Notes: generated by a model from the letters alone, not told the origin. Shown: positions 9,965-45,459, counted from the stretch's first letter. The stretch: DNA of 64,000 nucleotides from an uncultured Verrucomicrobiota bacterium (GCA_946186275.1 CAMHMO010000001.1:139735-203734), one strand, 5' to 3'. Numbers and translations are program-made.

Positions 9965-10508
9965 TGTTTTTTTATTGTTTATCCTTTGACCTGCCCCAAA
10001 CCGAGTCCCCCTCGCTTCGGGATAAGTTCAAAAAGAAAGATTTATAAGGAAAATTCAACGGTACGGCTTAACGCCATCCGTAGAAATAATATGAGGTCGC
10101 CGCAAAAAATCGCGACGCTTTCGTAAATCGAATAAAACTAAACGACCTCACGCTTTTTATTGAAGAGAGAAAACATCCTCTGTCAACGGTTTTTGTAAAA
10201 AATTAAAGGAATTTTCCGATTTTTGGAAAAATAAGCGATAGAAGCGGATAAAAAGATATTTTTTTTAATTAACCAGTTGATAAAATAATGGGAAATTTTC
10301 TGCCAGGATGATTTCAGCACTTTGCAGAGCGGAACGACTTTATGCCATGTCAGACTTGCAAACTAAAGGTCCTTGGTTTGAATTTGGGTTTTGTATCTGT
10401 GGAGGCTGTTCCTTCTATCTATTACCTTCGTCAAAGGTGTAAAGTGAAGATGGATTTGTTTTTTTGTTTGTATTTGCAGCTTACGAACTCTACTCTGAAG
10501 CAAGTGTG

Positions 10509-11630
10509 ATGAATATCCCTTATTTTCGATACGATTTCCTATACAAGGAGTTTAAAACAGACATAGATGAAGCCCTCCGAAATGTCTTAGATAAAGGCGC
10601 TTTTATTCTACAACAGGAGCTCAGAGATTTCGAAAAAGCGATTGCGGATTTTACTGGTGCGAAGCACGTCATCGGCGTCGGAAACGGAACCGACAGTCTG
10701 ATATTGATGATGAAGGCTTGCGGGATCCAACCCGGTGATGAGGTAATTATGCCTTCTCATACGTTTATTGCCACGGCAACCGCCGCGGGTTGGTTAGGGG
10801 CAATCCCGGTTCTTATCGACTGTAGAGATGACCATTTGATGGATGTAAGCAAGATTGAGGCGGCAATCACTTCAAAAACAAAAGTCATTATGCCGACGCA
10901 ACTGAACGGACGCACCTGCGAGATGGACAAATTGCAGGAAATTGCCGACAAACACGGGTTAATCATACTGGAAGATGCCGCACAAGCCTTAGGTTCCAAG
11001 TATTTGGGTCGTTGTGCCGGAACCTGGGGTAAGGCGGGTTCCATCAGTCTGTATCCGGCAAAAGTTTTAGGGTGTTTCGGGGACGGCGGAATGGTTTTAA
11101 CGGATGATGACAAAATTGCGCATGATATTTTTTGCATGCGGGATCACGGACGCGATCCGAAAACCAATCGGGTTTGCATGTGGGGTATTAATACGCGCCT
11201 GGACAATCTTCAAGCTGCGGTGTTGTTAGCTAAATTCAAACATTACCGCAAAACAATGCAACGCCGTCGTGAGATTGCTCAGCGTTACTGTGAACGATTA
11301 TCGAAAATCCCGGAAATCATTCTTCCGCCAGCTCCGAATGATGCAGATACACGGCATTGCGATGTTTACCAAAATTTTGAGATAGAGGTAGGAGAGCGTG
11401 ATGACTTGCGGAATTATTTGCAAGCAAACGGCATCGGTACCCTTATCCAGTGGGGAGGAAGGGCAGTGCATCAGATAACGGAATTGAAAGATAGTATGCG
11501 TTTTGATGTTAGTAATCTGCAAAGAACGGAGTTACTGTTTAAGCGTTGTCTGATGCTACCACTCAATATGTCCGTTTCGGATGATGAAGTCGATTATATT
11601 TGTGAAAAAATTGAAGCATTTTATAAATAA
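10509..11630 (+). CDS. DegT/DnrJ/EryC1/StrS-family PLP-dependent sugar aminotransferase
   Basis: Trimmed to MNIPYFRYDF (ATG 10509). Family hallmarks: GVGNGTDSL, PSHTFIATA, ILEDAAQALG, SLYPAKVLGCFGDGGMVLTDD. Confidence 0.85.
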   Translation: MNIPYFRYDFLYKEFKTDIDEALRNVLDKGAFILQQELRDFEKAIADFTGAKHVIGVGNGTDSLILMMKACGIQPGDEVIMPSHTFIATATAAGWLGAIPVLIDCRDDHLMDVSKIEAAITSKTKVIMPTQLNGRTCEMDKLQEIADKHGLIILEDAAQALGSKYLGRCAGTWGKAGSISLYPAKVLGCFGDGGMVLTDDDKIAHDIFCMRDHGRDPKTNRVCMWGINTRLDNLQAAVLLAKFKHYRKTMQRRREIAQRYCERLSKIPEIILPPAPNDADTRHCDVYQNFEIEVGERDDLRNYLQANGIGTLIQWGGRAVHQITELKDSMRFDVSNLQRTELLFKRCLMLPLNMSVSDDEVDYICEKIEAFYK

Positions 11631-11639
11631 GGATAATGA

Positions 11640-12479
11640 ATGAAAATAGATGAATATTTGAAAGATTTACCAGCGACAAGAGATGAAACTTGGTTTAATA
11701 ATCTAGACAGTCGAAAAAAGGAAGAGGCGTCTTTTCACGATTATGTACGGGCTGAAGAGGCGGTTAAAGGTGAGGCCGGGAAAAGAAGAAATTTAAAATT
11801 TTATAAAATTACGTGGAAATCGAAAGCATACGTACGCTCTTGGTTAAGAAAACATGTAATCGGGAAGGTTTTTTTGGATTATGCGTGTGGCGATGGGAGA
11901 CATTCGGAGGATGTTCTGAAAACATCCTGTCAAAGGCTTTTGGTGGGTTTGGATATTTCTTCGGAATCCATAAAGATTTGTAATGATAAACTGGGTCATA
12001 TTAATCCCAAATGTAAAAAATATTTCATTCAGGGAGATTGTGAGAACACGGGGTTCCCCGACAACTCCTTTAACATCATTCTTTGTTCTGAGGTGCTCCA
12101 TCATCTTGATTTGCACCGTGCTTTTTCGGAATTATATCGCATCCTGAGTCCGGGAGGGCGTATCCTTTGTGTCGAGGCACTTGGCATTAACCCTATTATT
12201 CAGTGGTACAGAAACAAGACCCCTGACTTGAGAACGGAATTTGAAACACATCACATTTTAACGCCAAAAGCCTTTAAAATTGCAGAGGATTGCGGATTTG
12301 TAGTAGAGGAGGTGAAGTATTGGCACTTGTTCGCGATTCCGTCAGCTTTTTTCTACACAAATAAATTTTTATTCAATGTCTTGTTAAACATAGGGAATGC
12401 TTTGGATTGTGTATTTTTAAAAATTCCAGGATTTCAAAAGTTGGCGTGGCAATTCACTTTTGTTTTGCGCAAAAGGTGA
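11640..12479 (+). CDS. Class I SAM-dependent methyltransferase
   Basis: Motif I VFLDYACGDGRHS; post-I/II DISSESI, ILCSEVLHHL; LSPGGRILCVE. Confidence 0.75.
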   Translation: MKIDEYLKDLPATRDETWFNNLDSRKKEEASFHDYVRAEEAVKGEAGKRRNLKFYKITWKSKAYVRSWLRKHVIGKVFLDYACGDGRHSEDVLKTSCQRLLVGLDISSESIKICNDKLGHINPKCKKYFIQGDCENTGFPDNSFNIILCSEVLHHLDLHRAFSELYRILSPGGRILCVEALGINPIIQWYRNKTPDLRTEFETHHILTPKAFKIAEDCGFVVEEVKYWHLFAIPSAFFYTNKFLFNVLLNIGNALDCVFLKIPGFQKLAWQFTFVLRKR

Positions 12480-12604
12480 AGAGTATGGAAATTAGCGTGA
12501 CAAAGGGGTATTACGCGGTATTTTTTAGATGCCATGTAATGTAGGCAATATTGGTAAGTTTTCATAGCAAACGCGCGTGAGAAATTGTCTTTCAGCATAA
12601 GCTT

Positions 12605-13618
12605 TTGTATGTTTCGATGTTTGATTTTTTCTCAAAAGAGTATCTATTGGAAACTGAGATGCGCGGGGACATAGCTGTAAGGATTTTAAGGAGAATTATC
12701 ACAATCCGTGAAACCGAAGAGTTTATTGCCAGAAAAATAGAATCGGGAGATATAAGATGTCCATGCCATTTGGCGGTAGGGCAAGAAGCAACACCTTCTG
12801 TTTTGGCTGAATTTTTAAATCCAGAAGATCGCGTTTACGGTACGCATCGATCACACCATCAGTACCTCGCAGTTACAGATGACGTAGAGGGATTGTTGGC
12901 TGAAGTACTTGGGAAAAAGAACGGATGCGCTAAAGGGATGGGTGGATCGCAACACTTAATAAATATTGAGAAGGGCTTTGGCGGCTCGGTTCCGATTGTT
13001 GGCGGAACCATCCCGATTGCCTGTGGAGCCGCCTTAGCGATGAAGTTAAAAGATAATAGGAGTATCGCGATCCCATTTTTTGGCGATGGAGCCACCGAAG
13101 AAGGTGTTTTCCATGAAAGTTTAAACCTTGCAAGCGTCATGAAACTTCCCGTATGTTTCATTGCCGAGAATAATTTATTTGCCAGTCATTTACATATTTT
13201 GGAACGTCAACCGGAAACCTCGTTGTGCAGGTTCGCAAAAGCGCATTTAATTGAGAACATCCAACTGGACGGGAATGATGTCATTAGTCTGTATGATCAT
13301 TTAAAGCAGATTATCCGTTATGTTCGCGATGAACGCCTTCCTTACTTCGTTGAAGTTATGACTTACAGATGGAAAGGTCATGTCGGATATCGCGAAGATC
13401 TGGATGTCGGTGTGAAACGTAAAGAGGATTTATCGATTTGGAAAACAGAAAAAGATCCGATCGGGAGATTACTTTCAAAGTATGAGTCGCTCAAAGATAC
13501 CTATGAAAACTTTATCCGAGAAGTTCACAAAAGAATAGAAAAAGCTTGGGAGTTTGCCAAGCAATCTGATTACGCGGATAAAGATTTTTTGTTAAGTTGC
13601 GTGTACTGCGAGGATTAG
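12605..13618 (+). CDS. Thiamine-diphosphate-dependent 2-oxoacid dehydrogenase E1 alpha-like subunit
   Basis: ThDP-binding motif FFGDGATEEGVFHESLNLASVMKLPVCFIAENN; overall colinear with PDH/acetoin dehydrogenase E1 alpha. Confidence 0.8.
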   Translation: MYVSMFDFFSKEYLLETEMRGDIAVRILRRIITIRETEEFIARKIESGDIRCPCHLAVGQEATPSVLAEFLNPEDRVYGTHRSHHQYLAVTDDVEGLLAEVLGKKNGCAKGMGGSQHLINIEKGFGGSVPIVGGTIPIACGAALAMKLKDNRSIAIPFFGDGATEEGVFHESLNLASVMKLPVCFIAENNLFASHLHILERQPETSLCRFAKAHLIENIQLDGNDVISLYDHLKQIIRYVRDERLPYFVEVMTYRWKGHVGYREDLDVGVKRKEDLSIWKTEKDPIGRLLSKYESLKDTYENFIREVHKRIEKAWEFAKQSDYADKDFLLSCVYCED

Positions 13619-13621
13619 GAT

Positions 13622-14602
13622 ATGAAAATAACTTACGCGGAAGGAATTCGGCTGGGATTTGAGTATTTGCTTGAAAATTACAAAGACGTTTTTGTTATCG
13701 GACAGGGGGTTTGGAGTCCTTGGTATGTAGGTTCCTCCATGGAAGGTTTGGACAAAAAATTCGGTCGCGAACGTGTTATTGACACCCCTGTATCCGAAAA
13801 TGCGGTTACTGGACTTTGTGTGGGAGCCGCTTTGAACGGTATGCGTCCCATATGTGTGCATCCCCGTATGGATTTTGCCGTTTTGTGTCTTGATCAATTG
13901 GTGAACGAAGCCGCAAAGTGGCGTCATATGTTCGGCGGTCAAGTAAAAATACCAATGGTTGCGCGGTTAATCATCAATCGGGGTGGCGAACAGGGGGCTC
14001 AACATTCACAAGCACTGCAGTCATGGTTGGCGCATATACCCGGATTGCGAGTGGTGATACCTTACACCCCGAATGATGCCAGGGATTTGCTGATTTCGGC
14101 AACTTTGTGCGATGATCCCGTTGTTTATATCGATGATCGTTGGTTATACGAACAACAAGAGGAAGCAAAGCCTATTCAAATATATTCTTTATCAAAAGAA
14201 GCACTGAAGTGTATTCACGAAGGCACCGATATAACATTGGTCGGCTCAGGATACACTTCTCTGTTATGCAAAAATGCTTGCGAAAAACTTAAAGACGTCA
14301 TTTCGTGTGATGTTTTTGATCTGCGGATTCTTAACCCGATGAATTTACAACCAGTATTCGAATCCGTAAAAAAAACGGGGCGTTTGTTAGTCGTCGACGG
14401 AGGTTGGTCATCTTGTGGAGTGGCATCGGAAGTGATTGCACGGGTTGTCGAACATTTGCGTGATGTGACTGTTCTAAAATGCGCTCCGCGGCACATAACT
14501 TTAAAGAATGCTCCGGCACCTACAAGCAGATACTTAGAACAGATATATTATCCCAACGTGGAGGATGCGTGTAAAACGATTTTGGATATGGTGAAGATGT
14601 GA
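13622..14602 (+). CDS. E1 beta-like (transketolase pyrimidine-binding plus C-terminal domain) subunit
   Basis: RVIDTPVSENAVTGLCVGAALNGMRPI.., GAQHSQALQSWLAHIPGLRVV; starts 4 nt after the alpha subunit. Confidence 0.8.
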   Translation: MKITYAEGIRLGFEYLLENYKDVFVIGQGVWSPWYVGSSMEGLDKKFGRERVIDTPVSENAVTGLCVGAALNGMRPICVHPRMDFAVLCLDQLVNEAAKWRHMFGGQVKIPMVARLIINRGGEQGAQHSQALQSWLAHIPGLRVVIPYTPNDARDLLISATLCDDPVVYIDDRWLYEQQEEAKPIQIYSLSKEALKCIHEGTDITLVGSGYTSLLCKNACEKLKDVISCDVFDLRILNPMNLQPVFESVKKTGRLLVVDGGWSSCGVASEVIARVVEHLRDVTVLKCAPRHITLKNAPAPTSRYLEQIYYPNVEDACKTILDMVKM

Positions 14603-15327
14603 TTCGTTTTCTTAACTATATCTTGTGTCTGTTAATAGCAATTGCTGTATTGCCGATCATTTTGTTTTTTTCGTTTTTGATTTATTTGTATGATTTCCAT
14701 AATCCGTTTTACATTTCGGTTCGTATAGGCAAAAACGGCAAATCTTTCAAAATGATAAAGTTGCGTTCCATGTGTGTCGATTCATGGAAGTACAAAGCTG
14801 ATACTACCGCAAATGACGACCCTCGCATCACGCCTATTGGACGAATAGTGCGCAGGTATAAAATAGATGAATTACCACAAATTGTTAATGTCCTCAAAGG
14901 AGATATTTGTATTGTCGGACCAAGACCTCAGGTTGAGACGGAAGTTAATCGTTATACATCGGTGGAAAGGGGTATCTTAAAGGTAAAGCCAGGGATAACA
15001 GATATCTCTTCTATTGTTATTGCCGATCTTGGCAACATTAGTAACGGAGTAAAAGATCCGGATTTGTTTTACGCACAGATTGTGCGTCCTTGGAAGTCCC
15101 GATTGGCACTTTTATATGTAGAGCATGCTTCAATTTGGTTGGATTTACGGTTAATGTTTTACACATTTACAAATATGTTTGCTAGAAAGTGGACTTTGGA
15201 CAAATTGTCAAAAATCGTTCGTCAATGGAAATATGATGTCAAGGACTTACCTGAAATTGTTGCGCGGCGTAAAAACTTATATGCGTATTCTGTTCCTGGG
15301 GCAGATAAAATTGTGGAGGCACCATAG
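14599..15327 (+). CDS. Bacterial sugar transferase (polyprenyl-phosphate hexose-1-phosphate transferase, WbaP/PglC-like)
   Basis: N-terminal TM helix, then DPRITPIGRIVRRYKIDELPQIVNVLKGDICIVGPRP. The GTG start overlaps the E1 beta stop. Confidence 0.85.
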   Translation: MIRFLNYILCLLIAIAVLPIILFFSFLIYLYDFHNPFYISVRIGKNGKSFKMIKLRSMCVDSWKYKADTTANDDPRITPIGRIVRRYKIDELPQIVNVLKGDICIVGPRPQVETEVNRYTSVERGILKVKPGITDISSIVIADLGNISNGVKDPDLFYAQIVRPWKSRLALLYVEHASIWLDLRLMFYTFTNMFARKWTLDKLSKIVRQWKYDVKDLPEIVARRKNLYAYSVPGADKIVEAP

Positions 15328-15378
15328 ATTGTAGAAGGAAGATCCTCTGAGAAGAAAATTTCTTATGCGCTTTCACAC

Positions 15379-16110
15379 CTACCCCAATTTAACCTTCAGA
15401 TCGTTAACCGTATCAAATTCCGCCCAATGATTTCGAATCGGAACACCGAAAACGGGAAAGTTTTGTTCGATAAGGTATTGCAAGAAATCCGTCGTGTAAG
15501 CATTTTTGTAATTTAAATGCAAATTTTTAAACGTTTCGTAATGCTGCTTGAATACTTTCACGTGCGTTGAGGAAATCTTAAACAACCCGATATATTGCCC
15601 CTGAATATCCTCCAAGGTTTTCGGCTTTTTGCCCAATTCGAAAATCCGACGTGTTTTCATATCCCAACGAAACGTTTCGGCATCTTTCAACGGCTCATCC
15701 ATGCGAGATTGCCAATAACGCCGCCAATCGACATCCGTAACGATACTGCACGGATCCTTCGATTGAAGCAATTTCTCCAATGCCGAAGCGTGGTAGATAA
15801 TATCTCCGTAGCTTACGATGATATCGCCGTCGTCCGTCATGTGTTCTTCGGCGTAAAACAAGCTGTAAAGCATGTTCGTCGTTGCGAATTCTTTATTGAC
15901 GACAACGGGATATTGTTGAGGCAAGGCATCGCTGCGGTATCCGCCGATGAGCGTGATGTTTTTCAGATTAAATTGCTTAAAAACTTCCAGTTGGTATTGC
16001 AAAAGCAGCTTTCCAAGATAAGAAACCAGGCATTTCGGTTGATTTTCCGTATAAGGACGCAAACGTTTCCCTTCGCCGGCGCAAAGAATAAAAATTTTAA
16101 CTTCTTTCAT
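15379..16110 (-). CDS. Nucleotidyltransferase (cytidylyltransferase fold; Cj1416-like candidate)
   Basis: N-terminal ILCAGEGKRLRPYTENQPKCLV signature of NTP-transferases. Overlaps the upstream amidotransferase-fold gene by 14 nt. Confidence 0.75.
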   Translation of the reverse strand: MKEVKIFILCAGEGKRLRPYTENQPKCLVSYLGKLLLQYQLEVFKQFNLKNITLIGGYRSDALPQQYPVVVNKEFATTNMLYSLFYAEEHMTDDGDIIVSYGDIIYHASALEKLLQSKDPCSIVTDVDWRRYWQSRMDEPLKDAETFRWDMKTRRIFELGKKPKTLEDIQGQYIGLFKISSTHVKVFKQHYETFKNLHLNYKNAYTTDFLQYLIEQNFPVFGVPIRNHWAEFDTVNDLKVKLG

Positions 16111-16729
16111 AAAATCTTTTCAAAAAAGCGCCGAACCAATCCAAATAAGGTACTCTCTCGGGATGCCACATGAAAGTGACAATCGGCAAAGTTGAATGAT
16201 ACATGGCTTCGCAATGGCCTTCCTTATCCGTAGCAAAACTTAAAAATTCTTCGGGAATTTTATCCAACGTAAAACGATGAAAAGAATTTACTTCAAACGT
16301 TTTTTGAGGAATTCCGTAAGGATTTGAATGCACGAAAATATCATGACGAACGTTAACGTGTCCTTCAATGTTCACCAAGGTTGCGCCGAAATACCGACCG
16401 ATAAACTGCATCCCGTGGCAAATACCCAAAAGAGGCATCTTGTGTTCTACGCAGTAATCAATACAATCCCTTTCGCATCGATCGCGCGTCGGATGTTCAT
16501 CACCGCCGCTCATCAGAATGCCGTCCAACGAAAGTGCTTCAATGAAATCACCGACACGGCACACATTCGGAATGGGAACCGCCAGGCAATCGTTCGTCCA
16601 CAGGAATTCCGTCCAATTTTGATCCAACGCATCGCGGGTTTCCCCGAGAGTTTCGAGGTATTCTACGCGCTGAGTAATACCAATTCTTAACATTTTTATC
16701 CGAGAACCGTCAGTTGATGTGTTGCACAA
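16097..16729 (-). CDS. Class I glutamine amidotransferase-fold hydrolase (peptidase C26/PuuD-like; Cj1417-like candidate)
   Basis: Nucleophile elbow PLLGICHGMQFIG and His/Glu motif FMWHPE. Confidence 0.75.
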   Translation of the reverse strand: MCNTSTDGSRIKMLRIGITQRVEYLETLGETRDALDQNWTEFLWTNDCLAVPIPNVCRVGDFIEALSLDGILMSGGDEHPTRDRCERDCIDYCVEHKMPLLGICHGMQFIGRYFGATLVNIEGHVNVRHDIFVHSNPYGIPQKTFEVNSFHRFTLDKIPEEFLSFATDKEGHCEAMYHSTLPIVTFMWHPERVPYLDWFGAFLKRFYERS

Positions 16730-19319
16730 TCCAACCGAACCAATCGCGCAAACTTCAGCTTATTAAAAAGACTTTCGCCGACACCGATGCTCGCCGGCAG
16801 GTTGAATTCCGAAGCACGAATTGCCATGTGCGAATTCGGTCCGCCGTAAGCGGTTATCAATCCGCCGATGTTGTAATTAAAGATCCAATCGAACCCGGGA
16901 TCCGCTTGTTCGACGAGAACAATTTTACCGCTCAACAAGCTTCCGTCCGTTGTTTCGGAATGTTCCAAATAAACAACTTCCGCTTCAATCGTTCCGTTGG
17001 CGATAAAATTAGGCAGTGTTTTAGGGACAAAAAAGGCATAAAAATCATCCCCTTTCGTAATCAACGGCGGCAACTCGATACTTTGAGTGATAAGATTATA
17101 CTCCTTACCCTGCGCAATAACCGCCTTTAACAACGATGCGGTATCCTCCCGCATGGAAAGACCGTTGCGGATATCTTCAAATAAACCGACAGAAACGTGC
17201 GACATTGCTTCCGCGTCGAAACCGTACTCTTCACCGATTGCTTTAATAAGGTCAAGAATTTCGGAAACGTAGCGCGTAAAGATAAACTTCGAGTATTCCC
17301 GACCGGAAACGGCATGCGATATAAATCGATAAAATTCATCCAAAGAAACACCGAACGTTTCCCGCAACGCATGTTCCAAATTTTTACTCGGAACATATTT
17401 TTTCTCGGGTTGCAGTCGCTCTTTTTCGCGGTTGCAACCGAAAATAGATATTTATTCGGATCGGAACGGTACGCCGGCGACGTAATATCGTAAGTACCTG
17501 GACGTAAATGTCCGTATTTGTGAATACAGCTTTCTTTCGAAATTTCGCCGTTTAACGCCCGTCGGATTTCATCGAAAAACTGCCCCGTAACGGTTTTGAT
17601 GCCGCCCGTAATCTGCATTTTTTCTTCTTCCGTCAGAAGACCTTTTGCGACAAAAGATTTCAAAAAGGAACTGGCAATAAAGCCGCAACGCGCCAAATGG
17701 GAAAAATTAAGTGTTCTGGCGCGACACGTTTGAAGCAAAACGTAAATTTTATCCAACGGTTTTAAGTCGGAAGCATCAATCCGATCAAATTGATGTTCAA
17801 TCGCCTGCATTTCCGCATAACAACGCTCGCAAATTTCGAAAGCATTTTTCGTTAACGTCAACAAAGCCTCTTTGTACGTCAAAAATTCTTCCTCCGAAAG
17901 CCCCGCCTCCGTCGTCAATAACCCATGCCAACGATCTTCAAAATCGACCGTATAACACGTCGGCATCACCATGAATTCCAATTTATCGTGCCAAGCGGAA
18001 TTTTGTTTCAGACGCCGAACGAAATAATCAACCAATTTCCCGGTCGTTTCATCGGAAAGAACATTCGGCAAAAACGAGTGCACACTCGCCCTCACATCTA
18101 CATAAGGATGGCCGACGAAATTGACGATCAGCGGATACGGTCGAACATCTTTGTAACCGAATTCGGCGCGTTGTTGCGCCCAAATATCGTTCGTAATAAG
18201 ATGTTGGTAAAGAGAAACGGCTAACCGACGCGGTTTAACACCGATAATTTCCGCCGGATTCCAGTCCGGCATTACACCGAAAATCGTTTCTTTCCCTCGA
18301 ATATCGGGATGGGCAATTTGGTAATCTTCAAAGCGTCGTTCCGCATCTGCCAAATAGTTCTGCAAACTTTCGTCGGTAACCTCCCGCAATTTTTGAGAAG
18401 CGATCGGTCTGACCTGGAAAACATACAATTCATCGTCATCGGTGACAGCGAACTCGACATCCAATGCATCGAATTGCACCAACGTCTCAATCTCCCGAAC
18501 CGCTTCGAATAATTTTGAGTAAAAACTCGGCGCGCTTGGCGGAATTTTCGCATACTCCCAATGGTAAAACGTTTCGTCGGATTTACTGAAACCGCTCGTA
18601 ACGGCAGCGGTATCCTTTTGCGCGTAATTGATAACGTAATAAGGTGCTCCGTACGTAAGCGTTCGCGTAAAAATAACGCCGCTGAGCTTCACGTTGTGCA
18701 ACATCGGCTGGATTAAAACCTGATCCGCGGAATTTTGGTTTCCGTAAGACGCAATGACCACATCGATCGCCTGTCGCAGTGCCTCCGAAGTCGGTTGAAC
18801 ATTGAGAAGACTTTCAAACTTCCCGGCATTGGCGGTGACAAATCCGTCCTCACGCAGAGAACTGCTTCTGACAACGAGCGTTTGCGAACCAAAATGCTTT
18901 AAAACATCTTCAAGAATTGCTTGCGGATTCTCGCGCCACTGACGTACAGAACAACAAACTTGCTCCAAAATATGAGCCTTGGTTACCTTCCCCTGTAACG
19001 TGTGCAACGTTTGTGCCTTTGTGGTCAGGACAAATTTTGCAACCCCATTCGGACTTAAAACTTCCGTCCATAACCCGTGCGCATCCAAAAAACGAACATT
19101 GCAATTCCTCTTTTGCAAACAACGAACCACTTCGGATAAACGATAATCCCTCACTTCGTCGCAAAAACAGGCATTTTCCTTCAAAATTTTTAACGCTTGC
19201 GGTCTAAAGTAAACGCAACCGACGAACGGATAATGAATTTTATCGATGCAAATCGTTTCGTAATCCTCCTTCGTTTTTAACAGTGACAAATCCAAATCAA
19301 GGGCAACAACGATATTCAT
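16696..19319 (-). pseudogene. PEP-utilising-enzyme family protein (PPDK_N ATP-grasp plus phosphohistidine swivel domain; Cj1418 glutamine-kinase-like), split by a frameshift
   Basis: ORF 17127..19319 has the ATP-grasp part (LVVRSSSLREDGFVTANAGKFESL) and turns to nonsense after ..SDCNPRK. ORF 16696..17379 carries the swivel domain with GGPNSHMAIRASEFNLPA. Adding one base to the T6 run at 17398..17403 joins them (..DCNPRKKYVPSKNLEHALRETFG..). This could instead be a homopolymer sequencing error. Confidence 0.6.
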
Positions 19320-19343
19320 GCGTTTTCAAGTATCCATCTGTAA

Positions 19344-20098
19344 TATAATGAACAGGCTTTTGATGCGTACGATACCGTTTTTTGCGTCGGTCCGCACCAT
19401 GAGACTGAAATTCGCAAACGCGAACAAATGTATCGATTGCCTGCTAAAAATTTAATCCCCGTCGGTTATCCGCGAATGGATGCAATTTTTCAAAAAAATC
19501 AACATTACCAAAAACAGTTCAACAAAACAACCGTTCTTGTGGCGCCCACCTGGAGCATGGCAAGTTTGTTCGAAAACGGCATAGATGAATTGTCAGATGT
19601 TTTGGAGAAAACCGATTGGCGGATTATCATTCGCCCACATCCCGAGTTTTTAAAACGACGTTCTTCCTTGCGAAAACATTGGAAGATCGCGTAATTCAAA
19701 CAAAAAACTTCGTCTGGGAAGATTGTTTGCTTTAGGAGAATAATCTTTACGAAGCCGATATCCTCATCACCGAGCGCTCGGAAATTGCCTTTAAATACGC
19801 TTTCGCGACGGAGCGTCCCGTGCTGTTTATCGATACACCGCTGAAGGAGCACAATAAAAATTGGAGATCATTAGGCATCGAGCCGATCGAACTGCAACTG
19901 CGCCATAAAATCGGCGTTTCGGTACCGTTGGCTCGTCTTTCGGAAGTTCCGGATGAAATTGAGAACCTGCTGAAAAGCCGAGCGGATTGGCAGGAAATGT
20001 TAAGAGAAATTCGCGAAATACATGTTTATAATTTTGGACATTCGGTTGAAAAGGGCGTGGATTATATAAGAGAAAGATTAAAAAAGAGTTGCATATAA
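19344..20098 (+). pseudogene. TagB/TagF-like CDP-alcohol (glycerophospho)transferase remnant
   Basis: Open frame starts at 19344 with no N-terminal domain. Family-like segments: VGYPRMDAIF, TTVLVAPTWS, then after a frame change ..LEDRVIQTKNFVWEDCLL*ENNLYEADILITERSEIAFKYAFATERPVLFIDTP.. with an in-frame TAG at 19733..19735. Confidence 0.6.
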
Positions 20099-20135: not shown

Positions 20136-20171
<36 letters not shown>

Positions 20172-20538: not shown

Positions 20539-21852
20539 ATGAGGTTATTTTTGTTATTATCGGTGTATAGGCTCCTTTTGAACTGGTTATGCAGTATTTT
20601 TTATGCTTGGAGAGGGTTTGAATATTCTTTTACATTCGATATACTCTCATGGTTTATATTCGCAGGTAGCTTTTCCCTTTTTAGAATCATAGTGCTTCTT
20701 AGCAAAAGGATGGATGATGTGCTAAAATTCCTTCTCTTGCTCCTTTATATGGCATCATATTTGCCGTTTACGTCTTTAATTGCCTTTCGTCGAGTATCGA
20801 TTCCTCTTATCATCCATAATTCGATTTATTTTCTTATTCTGGGAACGGTATGCAGATTGGGAGTTGAATTTTGTGATTTTAAAATACCTCTTATTACAGT
20901 TGGTAGGCGTCTTTTGACTGGAATTTGTGTTGTTATAGCGTCTGTTTGCCTATACATCTCCTACAGGTATGCATCCTTTCGATTGTACCTCCGTTTTGAT
21001 GACGTGTACATTGCTAGAAGTGCATTTTTACGTTTAAACATAAGTAAATTTGAGCGCACATTTTTCAGTGTAGCTGCGGCGCTTTTGCCCTATTTTGCGT
21101 CATATTTCCTTACTCAAAGACGACTGATAATAACAGTGCTTTGTACTGTATCTATAATAACTTCATACTGTACTTGTGGTTCCAAATTTTTGTTATTTAC
21201 ACTTGTGATTGGATACATTATAGTGTTGTTTCCTAGCAAAAAGATTTCAATAAGAGGAGATTTTTTCTGTTATCTTGGAATAGCTGTTTCTTTGATCACA
21301 GTTCTCGCACTGAAAGTTTCTTGTACTAATGTAATAGCTGATGTGGCTTCAAGATGCCTGTCGAGGATACTTTTTGCACTCAACTTCATGATTATTGATT
21401 ATTTTCATTTCTTTATTGAGACACATCATCCGCCTGAGTGTTACCTGAAGATTTTGAGTCACTTTATTAACGTTCCTGTTCGTTATCATAGTGATATTAA
21501 TCCAGTGCCATTGGTGATAGCGAAGACTTATTATGGTAATGAAGATTGGTGTTGTTGTGGATTATTGGGAATTGCAGTTATGAGGTTGGGATATCCAGGC
21601 ATTTTTGTAATGCCGTTTGTTTCTGCTTTTCTCGTATTGTTTTTTAGCAAGCTTGTTGTTGCTTTGGCTGATCGATTACAGATTTTTTTTTCAGGTTGTT
21701 TTATTATCTGCATCATGAATGGTAACACTTATGTACACTTCCTTTTCCCATTATTTTTCTGCCTTTGGTTGATGGGCTCTGCTGAGAATTCTAAGAAAAG
21801 TTGTAACAGTGTATCTAGAAATTTCCTACCTTACATTCGCGGCGGTATTTGA
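20539..21852 (+). CDS. Polytopic membrane protein, O-antigen polymerase (Wzy)-like
   Basis: 437 aa, almost entirely hydrophobic segments, markedly AT-rich, and located in the glycan locus. Assigned by architecture and context only. Confidence 0.5.
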   Translation: MRLFLLLSVYRLLLNWLCSIFYAWRGFEYSFTFDILSWFIFAGSFSLFRIIVLLSKRMDDVLKFLLLLLYMASYLPFTSLIAFRRVSIPLIIHNSIYFLILGTVCRLGVEFCDFKIPLITVGRRLLTGICVVIASVCLYISYRYASFRLYLRFDDVYIARSAFLRLNISKFERTFFSVAAALLPYFASYFLTQRRLIITVLCTVSIITSYCTCGSKFLLFTLVIGYIIVLFPSKKISIRGDFFCYLGIAVSLITVLALKVSCTNVIADVASRCLSRILFALNFMIIDYFHFFIETHHPPECYLKILSHFINVPVRYHSDINPVPLVIAKTYYGNEDWCCCGLLGIAVMRLGYPGIFVMPFVSAFLVLFFSKLVVALADRLQIFFSGCFIICIMNGNTYVHFLFPLFFCLWLMGSAENSKKSCNSVSRNFLPYIRGGI

Positions 21853-23616
21853 GTGCGCCTCGTGCGCCCGTGATCGGAACGTCGAGCAAATCGAATCAAA
21901 ACTGTCGATTTTCGAGCGATCGACTTGTATGTCCGTATTGATCGTATCGATGGCGGTATTGATAAACTGCGTTTTCTTTGAAAAAGCATCCGTCCAGGAA
22001 GAAACGACATCGGTTGTTATTTTATCGTTGTTGTAGAAATATTCATATTCCCGCACGCTGTTCGGGATAACCTTCGCGCAATCGATGCGTGTTGGAAGTT
22101 TGAAGTTTTTCACATAGCCCTTGTCAGCTTCATTCGTGTTTTCGTTATAATAATGATAAACCGCTTTCGCATTCGTCATTTCTACGGTATCAATCGGATC
22201 TTTTGTATCAATAAAAGTCGCCGTAAAAACCCCGGTTTCGTCCAAATCGTAATTATCACAAAAGTTATTTCCGCGCCCATCCCTGTCCGTACCGTTATTA
22301 CCGATCAAAAACCGCATACCGCTCTCGTCTGCCGGTATTAAAAAGCAATAATTACTTTTATCTTTTCGATTGGATTGAAGAACCAGATACTTTTTGTCAT
22401 CCTCTTCATAGAAGTTGTACATACTTCCACCGCATAAATACGTCAGTGCCGTCGCGGCACCGTCGGGAATTCGATGTTTGATATCTTTGCCGTCGGTACC
22501 CGATTGGCTTGAATTCAGGATATTCAGGCCGCGATTGATAAACTCCAAATACGTATTGAGTGCGGAGATGCTTTTCGATTGGATGTTTAAATTTTCGCGC
22601 AACGCCTGAACTTTGACCTCAAAAAACGACGAAACGGCGTTGATCGGACCGTCGCGATCCGTCAAATACCCGACGTAGAACATTTCCAACGCACCAAGGT
22701 GTTTCGTCGCTTCGGTATCTTTGGTGCTTTTCACATCGGGGATACACGGGAAGCCGGTTTCGATGTCATCGGGGAAATTGGTGTAGTCCGTATAACCGCG
22801 ACCGATAAGTTTGTAATAGTAGTAAATGAACTTCATGCGATCGATGAGTGATAACGAACCGAACACCATTATGGGAGCCTTTGCCGTTCCGCCTGCACGT
22901 GAATCCTTGTAAGCGATCAGTGTCGTACGCAAAGCCTCGAGATTGTCATAGTTGGTTATCGAAGCTATCTGTGAACGCACGTCTCCGGCTTCATACAACA
23001 TCTCCATCGGATCTTTGACGATTTCCCACTGTTTTGTATCGTTATTATATTGATGATGTTTCACCAGCGCATCGACCGTTTCATCGGCAAACGTTTTGCA
23101 AACGGACAGTTTATCGATGTAAGCGCGCGCCCTTTGCATTCTCTCATAATCGCTTACATCGGGCAGATCGCTAATTTCCTGCAACTTCTCCAAAGCCGTT
23201 TGGGCTTCGTTAATATATGTGTGCAACATCTGCAGGTAATCCACAATCGATTTGACGTAAAACCGCAACGCCATATACCCTTCGCGACACGTCTCATCAA
23301 CGGCTTTACCGTCGGGCATTCGCGAATCATTATAAATTTCGGAAAGTCTGTTAAAATTATCGCCGTATTTATCAATCGTATCCAAGGAAATAATATATCC
23401 GAGACGATAAAGTGCACCTTTCAGCAGATCGGGATAAGAGGTACCCGTCGGATATTTGCCTGTTGTATCGACGAAAAGTTTTTTGTATTCCGCAACGATT
23501 TCCGAAAGCGATTTATCCGATATATCCGCCACCGATGGTTGCACGCCGACGGTACGAACGTTTTCAATCGGCACAAACGGCTGATTGGATGAAACATCTG
23601 AAATACTTTGGGACAT
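21826..23616 (-). CDS. Orphan 596-aa protein, paralog of 23621..25348
   Basis: No signal peptide and a Ser-rich N-terminus. Shared blocks with its neighbour: YLTDRDGPINAV / YLIDRDGSVNAV, HRIPDGAATALTYLCG / HRIPEGAMNALMYVCG, KVIPNSVREY / KILPNSVRKY, INTAIDTINTDIQV / IQTAIDTVNTDIKV. Confidence 0.7.
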   Translation of the reverse strand: MSQSISDVSSNQPFVPIENVRTVGVQPSVADISDKSLSEIVAEYKKLFVDTTGKYPTGTSYPDLLKGALYRLGYIISLDTIDKYGDNFNRLSEIYNDSRMPDGKAVDETCREGYMALRFYVKSIVDYLQMLHTYINEAQTALEKLQEISDLPDVSDYERMQRARAYIDKLSVCKTFADETVDALVKHHQYNNDTKQWEIVKDPMEMLYEAGDVRSQIASITNYDNLEALRTTLIAYKDSRAGGTAKAPIMVFGSLSLIDRMKFIYYYYKLIGRGYTDYTNFPDDIETGFPCIPDVKSTKDTEATKHLGALEMFYVGYLTDRDGPINAVSSFFEVKVQALRENLNIQSKSISALNTYLEFINRGLNILNSSQSGTDGKDIKHRIPDGAATALTYLCGGSMYNFYEEDDKKYLVLQSNRKDKSNYCFLIPADESGMRFLIGNNGTDRDGRGNNFCDNYDLDETGVFTATFIDTKDPIDTVEMTNAKAVYHYYNENTNEADKGYVKNFKLPTRIDCAKVIPNSVREYEYFYNNDKITTDVVSSWTDAFSKKTQFINTAIDTINTDIQVDRSKIDSFDSICSTFRSRAHEAHSNTAANVR

Positions 23617-23620
23617 ATGA

Positions 23621-25348
23621 TTATTTTTTAATGTTTGAAGCGACTTTCACGTAGGCGGTGTGCGTTCGGTTTCGAAACGTATTGCTTAAAGTATTCAAGG
23701 TGTCGATTTTGTTGCGAAAGACTTTAATGTCGGTATTAACGGTATCGATGGCGGTTTGTATGGACGAAATTTTATCCTGAAACGCCTTTTGCCAGGAAGG
23801 CAATATGTCGGATTTGTCAATGAAAGCGGCTTTGTTAAAATCCGCGTATTTCCGAACGCTGTTTGGAAGAATTTTTTCACACTCGATTGGAAATGACGGT
23901 ACAAAGTCTTTCCCGAAAATTTTTTCCACATCATTATGACGATTGTAGCCGGAAGCCTGATTCGAGCAATGATATGTTGTCGGTTTACCGGAAAATAAAT
24001 CATCGCTGAGAAAGTATAGCTCACGATTGCCATTCCAATGATTATCAACACAGCAGTTCCCGCGATAGCTGTTTGCATCCGCCCTGTCACCGATCAACCA
24101 ATTCATACCGGCATCGTCGGCGGAAATCAGCAGATACTGTCCGTGACTTACATAACCTTCGAGAACCAAACACTTTGTCCCGTCGGATGCTTCCGCCAAC
24201 GGATACATGTTGCAGCCGCACACATACATCAATGCGTTCATCGCACCCTCAGGGATGCGATGTCGCTGCTCCGACGGAATTTCTCCCTTATCATTCGACG
24301 TCACACTTGACTGACTTGCGTTTAAAATATCCAAGGCACGCTGAATAAATTTCAAATAGACATTGAGTGCCTTTATTTTCTCCGATTCCAAGCGAATTTT
24401 TTCAATCAAAGCGGCGGATTTGACCTCCTGATACGACGCAACGGCGTTCACGGAACCGTCACGATCGATGAGGTAACCCATGAAAAAAGGTTCGATCGCG
24501 GCAAGCACATCCGTCTTTGATGCTTCCTTAACGGTCGGTACACCGCGAATCTTGTCGTTCGGAAAAAGCGCATCGGTTTTACCGCTGTCAATGTCGTAAT
24601 ACAATTTGATGTACTTTAAACGATCGAGAAGATTGAGTTCGTTAAAAACTTCGATGTTTTTTTTGCCAAACACAGGCTCCTTTTGATATTCCTGTTTTTC
24701 GTAATCCTGCACCTTCATGGTACGCAATTTATCGTAGGGCTTGTAGGCATTCGGGTCACCATCATGAAACTGCGTATGGGGGGCGTTTGTATAATCATCC
24801 TCATACAGTTTCCAAATGTCCTCGTTCAGGTCATAAATATAACGGAAGCCGAACGTTTCGTGCATCTCCTTCGAAAAACCGTCCAGAATATCCAGCTGAT
24901 CGATAAGCCACTGCGGAAAATCCGCCGTTGCCTGATTTAAAAGCGCGCGCGCTTTAATGATATAATCCCCGAGCTGATTGATTTGTTCGATGATCTGGCG
25001 ACCGTAAAACTTATAGGCATCATTTGCCTGATCGGAATCCACGCAAACATCTCGAATAAAATCCGTAAAATTCACATGGCGATTACGATCCATAGGAATG
25101 TTTTTTCCGAAAATGTCATTCAATTGTTTTAACAGATTGTTCTGAACCTTTTCGTGATTATTGAAAATCTCCGTGTAGTGTATTTTGATATCCTCTGCCA
25201 CAGCCGTATCGGCAACGGATGCCGCACGCAGATTTTTGCGTTCAACCGCCGACAATGATGATCGCGAACCGACGACGACATGCGGATACGTTGCGGGCAA
25301 AGGATTTAAATTCGGAACGGAATATGCCACGGTTTTGCCTTTATTCAA
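23621..25348 (-). CDS. Orphan 575-aa protein, paralog of 21826..23616
   Basis: See paralog blocks above. Separated from its paralog by 4 nt. Confidence 0.7.
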   Translation of the reverse strand: MNKGKTVAYSVPNLNPLPATYPHVVVGSRSSLSAVERKNLRAASVADTAVAEDIKIHYTEIFNNHEKVQNNLLKQLNDIFGKNIPMDRNRHVNFTDFIRDVCVDSDQANDAYKFYGRQIIEQINQLGDYIIKARALLNQATADFPQWLIDQLDILDGFSKEMHETFGFRYIYDLNEDIWKLYEDDYTNAPHTQFHDGDPNAYKPYDKLRTMKVQDYEKQEYQKEPVFGKKNIEVFNELNLLDRLKYIKLYYDIDSGKTDALFPNDKIRGVPTVKEASKTDVLAAIEPFFMGYLIDRDGSVNAVASYQEVKSAALIEKIRLESEKIKALNVYLKFIQRALDILNASQSSVTSNDKGEIPSEQRHRIPEGAMNALMYVCGCNMYPLAEASDGTKCLVLEGYVSHGQYLLISADDAGMNWLIGDRADANSYRGNCCVDNHWNGNRELYFLSDDLFSGKPTTYHCSNQASGYNRHNDVEKIFGKDFVPSFPIECEKILPNSVRKYADFNKAAFIDKSDILPSWQKAFQDKISSIQTAIDTVNTDIKVFRNKIDTLNTLSNTFRNRTHTAYVKVASNIKK

Positions 25349-45435: not shown

Positions 45436-45459
45436 AGAGAGAGAGAGAGAGAGAGAGAG
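45436..45459. repeat. (AG)12 microsatellite, (CT)12 on the OMP gene strand, 14 nt upstream of its ATG
   Basis: Counted directly. Minus strand reads TTGACC-TCTCT..CT-AATGGAGACGTTAT-ATG. Confidence 0.95.

Follow-up and report, generated by a model that had tools for sequence, protein, structure and literature searches.

O-methyl phosphoramidate (MeOPN) is regarded as a hallmark of the Campylobacter capsule, with a role in serum resistance and phage recognition. In Campylobacter jejuni a kinase yields phosphoglutamine, a nucleotidyltransferase (NTase) converts this to cytidine diphosphate (CDP)-L-glutamine, and a hydrolase produces cytidine diphosphoramidate (PMC11800397, PMC6429109). The three enzymes are Cj1418 (L-glutamine kinase, EC 2.7.3.13), Cj1416 and Cj1417 (EC 3.5.1.129); a fourth, Cj1415, is a CDP-amidate 3′-kinase. 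Here we describe a 64,000-nt stretch of DNA from an uncultured Verrucomicrobiota bacterium (GCA_946186275.1, CAMHMO010000001.1:139735-203734; hereafter the window), in which the minus strand between positions 15379 and 19319 carries, in this order, a phosphoenolpyruvate (PEP)-utilising kinase, a class I amidotransferase-fold hydrolase and an NTase. We consider it likely that this is a decaying copy, in a gut or rumen member of the Opitutales (Verrucomicrobiota), of a widespread variant of the cj1418-cj1417-cj1416 cassette in which the kinase is fused to an additional domain. The closest species representative among the matches listed is an Opitutales metagenome-assembled genome (MAG), in agreement with the Planctomycetes-Verrucomicrobia-Chlamydiae origin proposed in the original prediction, which was made from the sequence alone.

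Phosphoramide groups are also found on the lipo-oligosaccharide core of Xanthomonas campestris and in a minor variant of Shewanella MR-4 lipopolysaccharide (PMC8042644, PMC3210612). Our literature search on the cassette beyond Campylobacter, incomplete in coverage, found nothing on the fused architecture or its breadth; the one related report was a Borg preprint mentioning a similar cluster of four genes, two of them for cytidylyltransferases.

Homology with the C. jejuni enzymes

Four open reading frames (ORFs) occupy the minus strand of this region: the NTase, the amidotransferase-fold ORF, and two out-of-frame pieces of the PEP-utilising enzyme (17127-19319 and 16696-17379), the second of which contains the motif GGPNSHMAIRA. 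The Pfam families matched by the trio are NTP_transf_3, GATase/Peptidase_C26, PPDK_N and PEP-utilizers. The reading frames, motifs and gene order originally described were all recovered. The hydrolase ORF is readable back to position 16729 (16097-16729), its likely start being the ATG at 16699, which matches the called genes of relatives; counted from this start the kinase and hydrolase genes overlap by 4 nt, while those of the hydrolase and NTase overlap by 14 nt.

The C. jejuni proteins used as references in BLASTP comparisons came from locus L083 (CP010476.1), with the gene order methyltransferase, 779-aa kinase, 200-aa hydrolase, NTase, 170-aa APS-kinase-like protein, KpsC and KpsS, and from the Cj1416 protein cluster P0121 (253 aa). 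The latter was located with a Cj1416 sequence read off the alignment published as Suppl. Fig. 15 of PMC6697681, and the real proteins were then used instead. In L083 itself (10001-10576) the Cj1416 gene is called at 191 aa as against 253 aa, so that the MeOPN pathway of that strain may be naturally truncated.

Over 542 aa the window kinase fragment (17439-19316) shares 36% identity with residues 1-529 of Cj1418 (E 3e-107), the alignment starting at residue 92 of the window ORF, and an intact protein from a close relative (P0002) is 37% identical across all 779 residues (E 6e-163). The hydrolase shares 32% identity with Cj1417 over 189 of 200 aa (E 3e-28), and the NTase 38% with Cj1416 over 249 aa (E 1e-56, 169 bits), at full length and including the C-terminal half. 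A profile comparison of the NTase family with the Cj1416 sequence machine-read from the published figure gave an hhalign E value of 6e-65. The NTase and hydrolase are also 37% and 34% identical, respectively, to their counterparts in a Campylobacter-type cluster of Eubacterium (L082; see below). Several of the kinase homologues carry the JGI name "glutamine kinase," and the two kinase pieces scored 601 (main) and 250 bits (3′ fragment) on model NF004508 (PRK05849; cutoff 501), on which the unfused Eubacterium kinase reaches 970 bits. For the hydrolase the top NCBIfam match is the Cj1417 model, NF045546 (113 bits), followed by a GMP synthase model (62 bits).

The residues expected of active enzymes are present. 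The window NTase contains ILCAGEGKRLRP and retains all 35 family-invariant residues, including GxGxRLxPxTxxxPK; the signature GxG(T/S)Rx8PK appears as CAGEGKRLRPYTENQPK. The hydrolase (PF00117, E 1.9e-19) retains the Cys of GICHGMQ and the His-x-Glu of WHPER, and the triad C104, H189 and E191 is invariant in 19 family members, the window protein among them. In the swivel domain of the kinase (PF00391, E 1.9e-12) the GGPNSHMAIRA motif (GGxxSHxAI, with the catalytic His) is invariant in 15 homologues. The window trio thus shares with the C. jejuni enzymes the three families, their order and the overlapping frames, and has the GxGxRx8PK motif together with the swivel His and the Cys-His-Glu triad.

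More remote relatives are distinguishable. No PDB entry for Cj1416, Cj1417 or Cj1418 was matched, and a search with the kinase found no related solved structure at E 0.01. The best structure for the NTase was LicC (1jyk, 54 bits), covering only the N-terminal ~90 residues. LicC and PntC, which make CDP-choline and CMP-2-aminoethylphosphonate (CMP, cytidine monophosphate; 1JYK, 6PD1), share the PF12804 fold and the GxG(T/S)Rx8PK motif with it (PMC6697681), but this likeness is N-terminal, whereas that to Cj1416 is full length, and no lic or ppm genes lie nearby. Similarly, the kinase shares an ATP-grasp and a phosphohistidine swivel domain with PEP synthase, pyruvate phosphate dikinase and rifampin phosphotransferase, but lacks the PEP/pyruvate-binding TIM barrel and scores only 17-35 bits on models with cutoffs of 600-1000. 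On these alignments the trio are specific homologues of cj1418-cj1417-cj1416 rather than generic PpsA, PuuD or GlmU proteins, as the original prediction had it, and the direct matches exclude a purely generic similarity. An exact-sequence look-up of the window NTase returned no record. Proteins with 57-66% identity to Cj1416 (P0150-P0235) are also encoded by many enterohepatic species of Helicobacter; the NCBI name of most of these and of most Campylobacter orthologues, "phosphocholine cytidylyltransferase family protein," is probably misleading.

The fused kinase

A protein search with the kinase returned 3822 homologues, the full-length ones being 990-1040 aa and extending ~115-140 aa further at the N-terminus than the window ORF. 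Opitutales and Puniceicoccales MAGs account for those at 57-90% identity, and Pseudomonas, Halomonas, Marinomonas and others for those at ~42%. In a tblastn search with the 989-aa P0002 the match to the window opens at residue 117 (position 19316) and switches frame near 17430, with 91% identity in the main fragment and 86% over 17427-16699 in the other frame.

The first ~205 residues of the intact fusion proteins constitute a separate domain, which has no Pfam match in P0002 and no counterpart in Cj1418, the alignment to which begins at P0002 residue 208. Profile-profile comparison (hhalign probability 99.9%, E 6e-32, 16% identity) identifies this domain as a divergent paralogue of the stand-alone Cj1416-like NTase; the first 91 residues of the 730-aa window ORF correspond to its C-terminal half, the remainder being lost. 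The alignment gap in the fused domain falls exactly at the GxGxRLxP signature, and the PK is missing as well. Suppl. Fig. 15 of PMC6697681 aligns LicC/PntC-type enzymes and boxes their consensus signature. As the fused domain has neither the Arg nor the Lys of this signature, it is probably a non-catalytic binding or docking module. It was also considered as the true Cj1416 equivalent and rejected: it has no BLAST similarity to the Eubacterium NTase and no signature motif, and the stand-alone NTase matches Cj1416 at full length.

Distribution and gene neighbourhood

A scan with one genome per species gave at least 599 candidate stretches, at least 581 of which encode a relative. The cassette, with its order conserved, is therefore present in at least 581 species-representative genomes from more than 10 phyla, and the expectation that such genes would be unusual outside Campylobacter fails at the gene level. 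Neighbourhoods were counted over 82 loci. In the 80 scan loci listed, out of the at least 581, the Pseudomonadota are represented by Marinobacter, Legionella, Vibrio, Bosea, Rhodoferax, SAR86 and Pelagibacteraceae; the other carriers belong to the Verrucomicrobiota, Planctomycetota, Actinomycetota, Bacteroidota, Cyanobacteria, Myxococcota, Spirochaetota, Acidobacteriota and Chloroflexota, together with one Firmicute and one haloarchaeon. The fused type thus occurs in organisms as different as gut Verrucomicrobiota, Marinobacter, Pseudomonas, Legionella, Actinomycetota and a haloarchaeon. Carriers available in culture include Marinobacter spp., Pseudomonas chlororaphis, P. veronii, Legionella septentrionalis and Rheinheimera maricola.

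Kinase, hydrolase and NTase genes are directly adjacent, in that order, in 55 of 81 loci; the hydrolase is found in 81 of 82 and the NTase in 79-81. Conservation of this adjacency and co-occurrence across related loci argues that the arrangement of the trio is not due to chance. The fused N-terminal domain is conserved in 76 of the 82. The commonest neighbour (48-50 loci) is a gene resembling TagF, a CDP-glycerol glycerophosphotransferase, followed by a gene for a formyltransferase-fold protein (35-37) and a methyltransferase cluster (~15). Sulfatase-family (alkaline-phosphatase-superfamily) membrane proteins, Wzt-like ABC ATPases and sulfotransferase-family proteins also recur. An APS-kinase-like gene, of the type of Cj1415, occurs only in the Eubacterium locus and in two Rheinheimera loci.

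The Eubacterium sp. 14-2 locus (L082, 8392-16293) is a complete Campylobacter-type set in a Firmicute, with the same gene set as C. jejuni L083: an unfused 806-aa kinase, a methyltransferase, the hydrolase, the NTase, an APS-kinase-like protein and a second methyltransferase. One of the methyltransferases is 43% identical to that of C. jejuni. The window family has homologous kinase, hydrolase and NTase genes but lacks the unfused kinase, the APS-kinase-like gene and the two methyltransferases. From gene content, two architectures are recognisable: a Campylobacter type with an unfused kinase and a 3′-kinase, and a much commoner fused type with neither, to which the window belongs.

Some individual loci are noteworthy. 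The Rheinheimera loci (L052 and L061, 6790-14434) combine a fused-type cassette with an APS-kinase-like gene 39-40% identical to that of Eubacterium, and have TagF-like and long formyltransferase-fold genes just upstream; they are a possible intermediate between the architectures. In the haloarchaeon Natrarchaeobius oligotrophus (L033, 13182-14609) the fused kinase is followed by a 475-aa ORF with an NTase domain at residues 224-346, and a separate hydrolase gene was not found in this locus, which suggests an archaeal hydrolase-NTase fusion. A locus labelled as a Bifidobacterium breve MAG (L062) has the gene order of six Solirubrobacterales/Solirubrobacteraceae loci (L049, L057, L058, L059, L063 and L067), and its contig is probably mis-binned.

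Transferase, 3′-kinase and methyltransferase candidates

No APS-kinase-like (Cj1415-type) gene was detected in the 64-kb window, the best tblastn match to the Eubacterium protein having an E value of 1.5; the original prediction had likewise seen none. Unlike the C. jejuni locus, the window type has no linked 3′-kinase of this kind, and its usual partner is instead the TagF-like gene, divergently oriented from the kinase. The intact orthologue in the close relative L001 matches PF04464, the family of the TagF/TarF glycerophosphotransferases, and more weakly TarF (E 1e-4), while distant members of the group match only weakly, at E ~1e-3, below the Pfam cutoff.

The gene next to the C. jejuni MeOPN genes encodes a 537-aa DUF8374/DUF2972 protein, which we take to be the Cj1421/1422 phosphoramidate transferase. 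The TagF-like protein showed no similarity to it and was rejected as its homologue, as was, by comparison, the 563-aa protein (weak sulfotransferase-family match) whose gene precedes the Eubacterium set.

The original prediction had also placed an S-adenosylmethionine (SAM) methyltransferase gene (11640-12479) in the same locus. The gene is real, but its product is unrelated to the cassette-linked and C. jejuni methyltransferases: it is 21% identical to the C. jejuni methyltransferase encoded beside Cj1418 (E 8e-4) and does not match the cassette-linked cluster c13, and a function as the MeOPN O-methyltransferase (Cj1419/Cj1420 type) was rejected on these grounds. It lies on the plus strand within a group of genes (10464-15327) for a DegT-type aminotransferase, the SAM methyltransferase, the alpha and beta subunits of a thiamine pyrophosphate-dependent E1 enzyme, and a PglC/WbaP-like initiating sugar transferase. 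In L001 transketolase-type subunits replace the E1 pair, and the sugar-modification module thus differs between close relatives.

Deletion and frameshift

The damage in the window (Table 1) was mapped against two close relatives, L001 (from a metagenome; intact fusion gene at 10001-12970) and L003 (Opitutales MAG Tb.RUG.38). By blastn, window positions 15371-19314 are collinear with L001 14295-10351, and 19315-20392 with L001 9642-8563; L003 agrees. The window thus lacks 708 bp at 19314/19315, and with them both start codons, the first 116 codons of the kinase fusion and the first ~118-122 of the TagF-like gene that diverges from it. The opening ATG of the 730-aa window ORF is antisense TagF-like sequence, aligning to the TagF-like gene of L001. 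In the Logan assembly of run X1, a gut metagenome, an exact 211-bp contig spans the junction with no loose ends at 19314/19315, while run X3, of isolate-like depth, has the 708 extra letters at this point and run X21 continues into intact sequence. The 708-bp deletion is a real allele, so far seen in one sample.

The second, possibly artefactual lesion in the kinase is a missing base. Runs X2, X3, X4, X10 and X26 have an extra C after position 17428 and runs X20 and X21 an extra T after 17429; four of these seven are locally ~99% identical to the window. With the 708-bp truncation and the two frames around 17428, the window sequence has no single uninterrupted kinase frame with its own start. 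The kinase thus reads as frame-broken, as had been proposed, but it is not merely frameshifted: it is the remnant of a 5′-truncated fusion gene with a pseudogene as its divergent partner.

Table 1. Features of the cassette region and its flank, with positions counted from the first letter of the window
Feature	Position	Strand	Evidence
Cj1416-like cytidylyltransferase (CTP:phosphoglutamine cytidylyltransferase family; CTP, cytidine triphosphate), intact, 243 aa	15379..16110	-	BLASTP to Cj1416
Cj1417-like gamma-glutamyl-CDP-amidate hydrolase, class I GATase fold, intact, 200 aa	16097..16699	-	BLASTP, NF045546
Glutamine-kinase gene 3′ fragment, residues 747-989 of the intact 989-aa fusion; phosphohistidine swivel domain with GGPNSHMAIRA	16696..17427	-	tblastn of P0002
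Frameshift site, one base short relative to every related sequence, inside GCGAAAAAGAG (coding strand)	17428..17429		Three-frame translation, public runs
Glutamine-kinase main fragment, ATP-grasp/PPDK_N-like part and central region, Cj1418 residues 1-529	17439..19046	-	BLASTP, NF004508
C-terminal half of the fusion's degenerate N-terminal NTase-like domain; fortuitous ATG at 19317-19319	19047..19314	-	P0002 match, hhalign
Junction of the 708-bp deletion	19314..19315		blastn against L001 and L003
TagF-like (CDP-glycerol glycerophosphotransferase family) pseudogene remnant, 5′-truncated, frame broken	19315..20098	+	Match to 389-aa L001 protein

The TagF-like remnant noted earlier is also real (19428-20098), and matches the PF04464 protein of relatives. 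It corresponds to residues ~123-389 of the 389-aa L001 protein and reads as two short ORFs (19428-19694 and 19820-20098), having suffered at least one further 1-nt deletion (relatives have an extra G after 19669) and frame-breaking substitutions. A second, partial copy of the C-terminal half of the TagF-like gene (181 aa) lies at L001 5924-6469, a few kb from the intact one, and points to earlier rearrangement in that locus.

Beyond the NTase, the window also lacks genes that follow it in L001, namely those for two membrane proteins without Pfam matches and one formyltransferase-fold protein; one of these membrane proteins clusters with a 486-aa protein encoded upstream in L001. The hydrolase and NTase genes are intact and appear, from the state of their neighbours, to be recent orphans. 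In comparisons of the window with its relatives, every part gives a ratio of nonsynonymous to synonymous substitution rates (dN/dS) of 0.12-0.20, against 0.08-0.14 between the two intact relatives. These near-equal values suggest that the lesions are recent, and no clear relaxation was seen in the window parts. A promoter and terminator scan gave fewer hits than expected by chance, with no sigma-70-like site upstream of the new ATG, which is weak evidence.

Proposed pathway and alternatives

By homology, the kinase of the fused type would make phosphoglutamine, which the stand-alone NTase would join to CMP from CTP, giving CDP-L-glutamine; the hydrolase would then remove glutamate to leave cytidine diphosphoramidate, an activated phosphorus-nitrogen (P-N) donor for a surface glycan. 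A last step is suggested by analogy with TagF and TarF, which take a phospho-group from a CDP-linked donor and release CMP; CDP-amidate would fit this chemistry. As the fused type lacks a 3′-kinase and its partner family has this CDP-donor chemistry, the TagF-like enzyme probably transfers the phosphoramidate straight from CDP-amidate, CMP being released. The comparison with TagF/TarF is tempered by the weak scores of distant members, and the window copy is a pseudogene.

In this genome the 708-bp deletion took the heads of both the kinase and the divergent TagF-like genes, the two that are broken in the window. With the kinase truncated at its 5′ end and the TagF-like partner a pseudogene, the first and the presumed last steps would be lost, and the pathway is probably dead or switched off here.

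A bolder proposal, plausible but held only tentatively, is that the fused-kinase cassette constitutes a widespread second route to P-N glycan decoration. TagF-like transferases would here use cytidine diphosphoramidate directly, with no 3′-phosphorylation, the dead NTase paralogue might hold or channel the labile phosphoglutamine, and the window strain would be a natural knock-out.

Several observations weigh against the reading of the window as a decaying copy of such a pathway. Both the enzyme activities of the fused variant and the P-N bond on a carrier glycan are predicted by homology, and the 113 bits of the hydrolase fall below the NF045546 equivalog cutoff of 250. The cassette might make another activated compound, with a different amide or amine N- or O-phosphorylated or a different nucleotide attached, its likeness to the C. 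jejuni genes being a matter of shared families and not of a shared product. Identities of just 32-38% to the Campylobacter enzymes would allow for this, as would the differences in architecture, with an extra domain, other transferases, a formyltransferase-fold neighbour and no 3′-kinase, and the dissimilarity between the TagF-like protein and the C. jejuni DUF2972 protein. We think such a product rather unlikely. The hydrolase from the complete, bona fide Campylobacter-type cluster of Eubacterium likewise reaches only 116 bits on NF045546, and the cutoff must hence be narrow; the three enzymes vary together, as one unit whose order and overlaps are alike in the two architectures; and the similarity of the NTase to Cj1416 runs through the C-terminal substrate-binding half, unlike the LicC match.

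Other observations bear on whether the pathway is lost. The 1-nt frameshift has no independent run behind it and may be an assembly error: every other near-identical run has the frame-preserving base, and because the X1 contigs end on both sides of 17428, exactly at the site, they do not confirm the window version independently. If it is an artefact, the ORF from the fortuitous ATG still spans all of the sequence that aligns to Cj1418, and its product could be active if the gene is transcribed. A transferase or a second kinase copy could also lie outside the 64-kb window. The pathway would then still function, with the truncated gene translated from the new ATG in the manner of the unfused Cj1418 and a transferase encoded elsewhere, and the retention of all invariant residues by the hydrolase and NTase, with dN/dS little raised, would accord with this. 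A working pathway is nevertheless improbable in our view. The deletion removed both divergent start regions, and the missing sigma-70-like site, weak evidence as it is, points the same way; half of an N-terminal domain that most loci conserve is gone, the linked TagF-like gene is both truncated and further broken, and the accessory genes that follow the NTase in L001 are absent.

The deletion junction, too, has been found in run X1 only, possibly the very data behind the window assembly, and at a depth of only ~3x. A collapsed or chimeric join is still very improbable as its source, given that Logan's independent assembly of X1 reproduces the junction in an exact contig free of loose ends, and that the break points have no repeat which could explain a collapse. 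Finally, the notion that these are ordinary housekeeping neighbours (a PEP synthase, a PuuD/GMP-synthase-type amidotransferase and a GlmU/RmlA-type sugar nucleotidyltransferase), for which the generic Pfam domains and weak matches to PEP synthase, GuaA and GlmU models might be cited, is already refuted and can be set aside, the trio scoring 17-62 bits on those NCBIfam models against cutoffs of ~170-1000 while the Cj1418-type model is passed, with direct full-length similarity to Cj1416, Cj1417 and Cj1418 and synteny across phyla.

The decaying copy in the window is itself of small value, serving mainly as evidence that gut Opitutales can dispense with the trait, which varies between strains. 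The wider fused family is the more interesting object, as an uncharacterised variant of a known pathway. If its cassette makes the same P-N donor, phosphoramidate decoration would be common among bacteria of both the environment and the gut and would mark a blind spot in glycan chemistry, and there would be a genetic handle on the unexplained phosphoramide groups of Xanthomonas and Shewanella lipopolysaccharide cores. The fused architecture, with its TagF-like partner, dead NTase domain and lack of a 3′-kinase, predicts a simpler transfer chemistry.

Other features of the window

A (GA)14 microsatellite lies at 20138-20165, just downstream of the TagF-like remnant; L001 has kept it too. Contigs from several runs break or pile up there, with spikes in depth and TG-repeat loose ends. 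A second microsatellite, (AG)12, is found at 45436-45459.

Just beyond the glycan locus, two adjacent paralogous ORFs without Pfam match (21826-23616 and 23621-25348, minus strand) encode proteins of 596 and 575 aa which are 34% identical over 501 aa. At the other end, the minus strand between 2299 and 9964 carries six tandem paralogues of 374-418 aa with mutual identities of 38-54%. A single member was examined and falls in the tryptophan/tyrosine permease family (PF03222), and this would be an unusually large array of aromatic amino-acid permeases.

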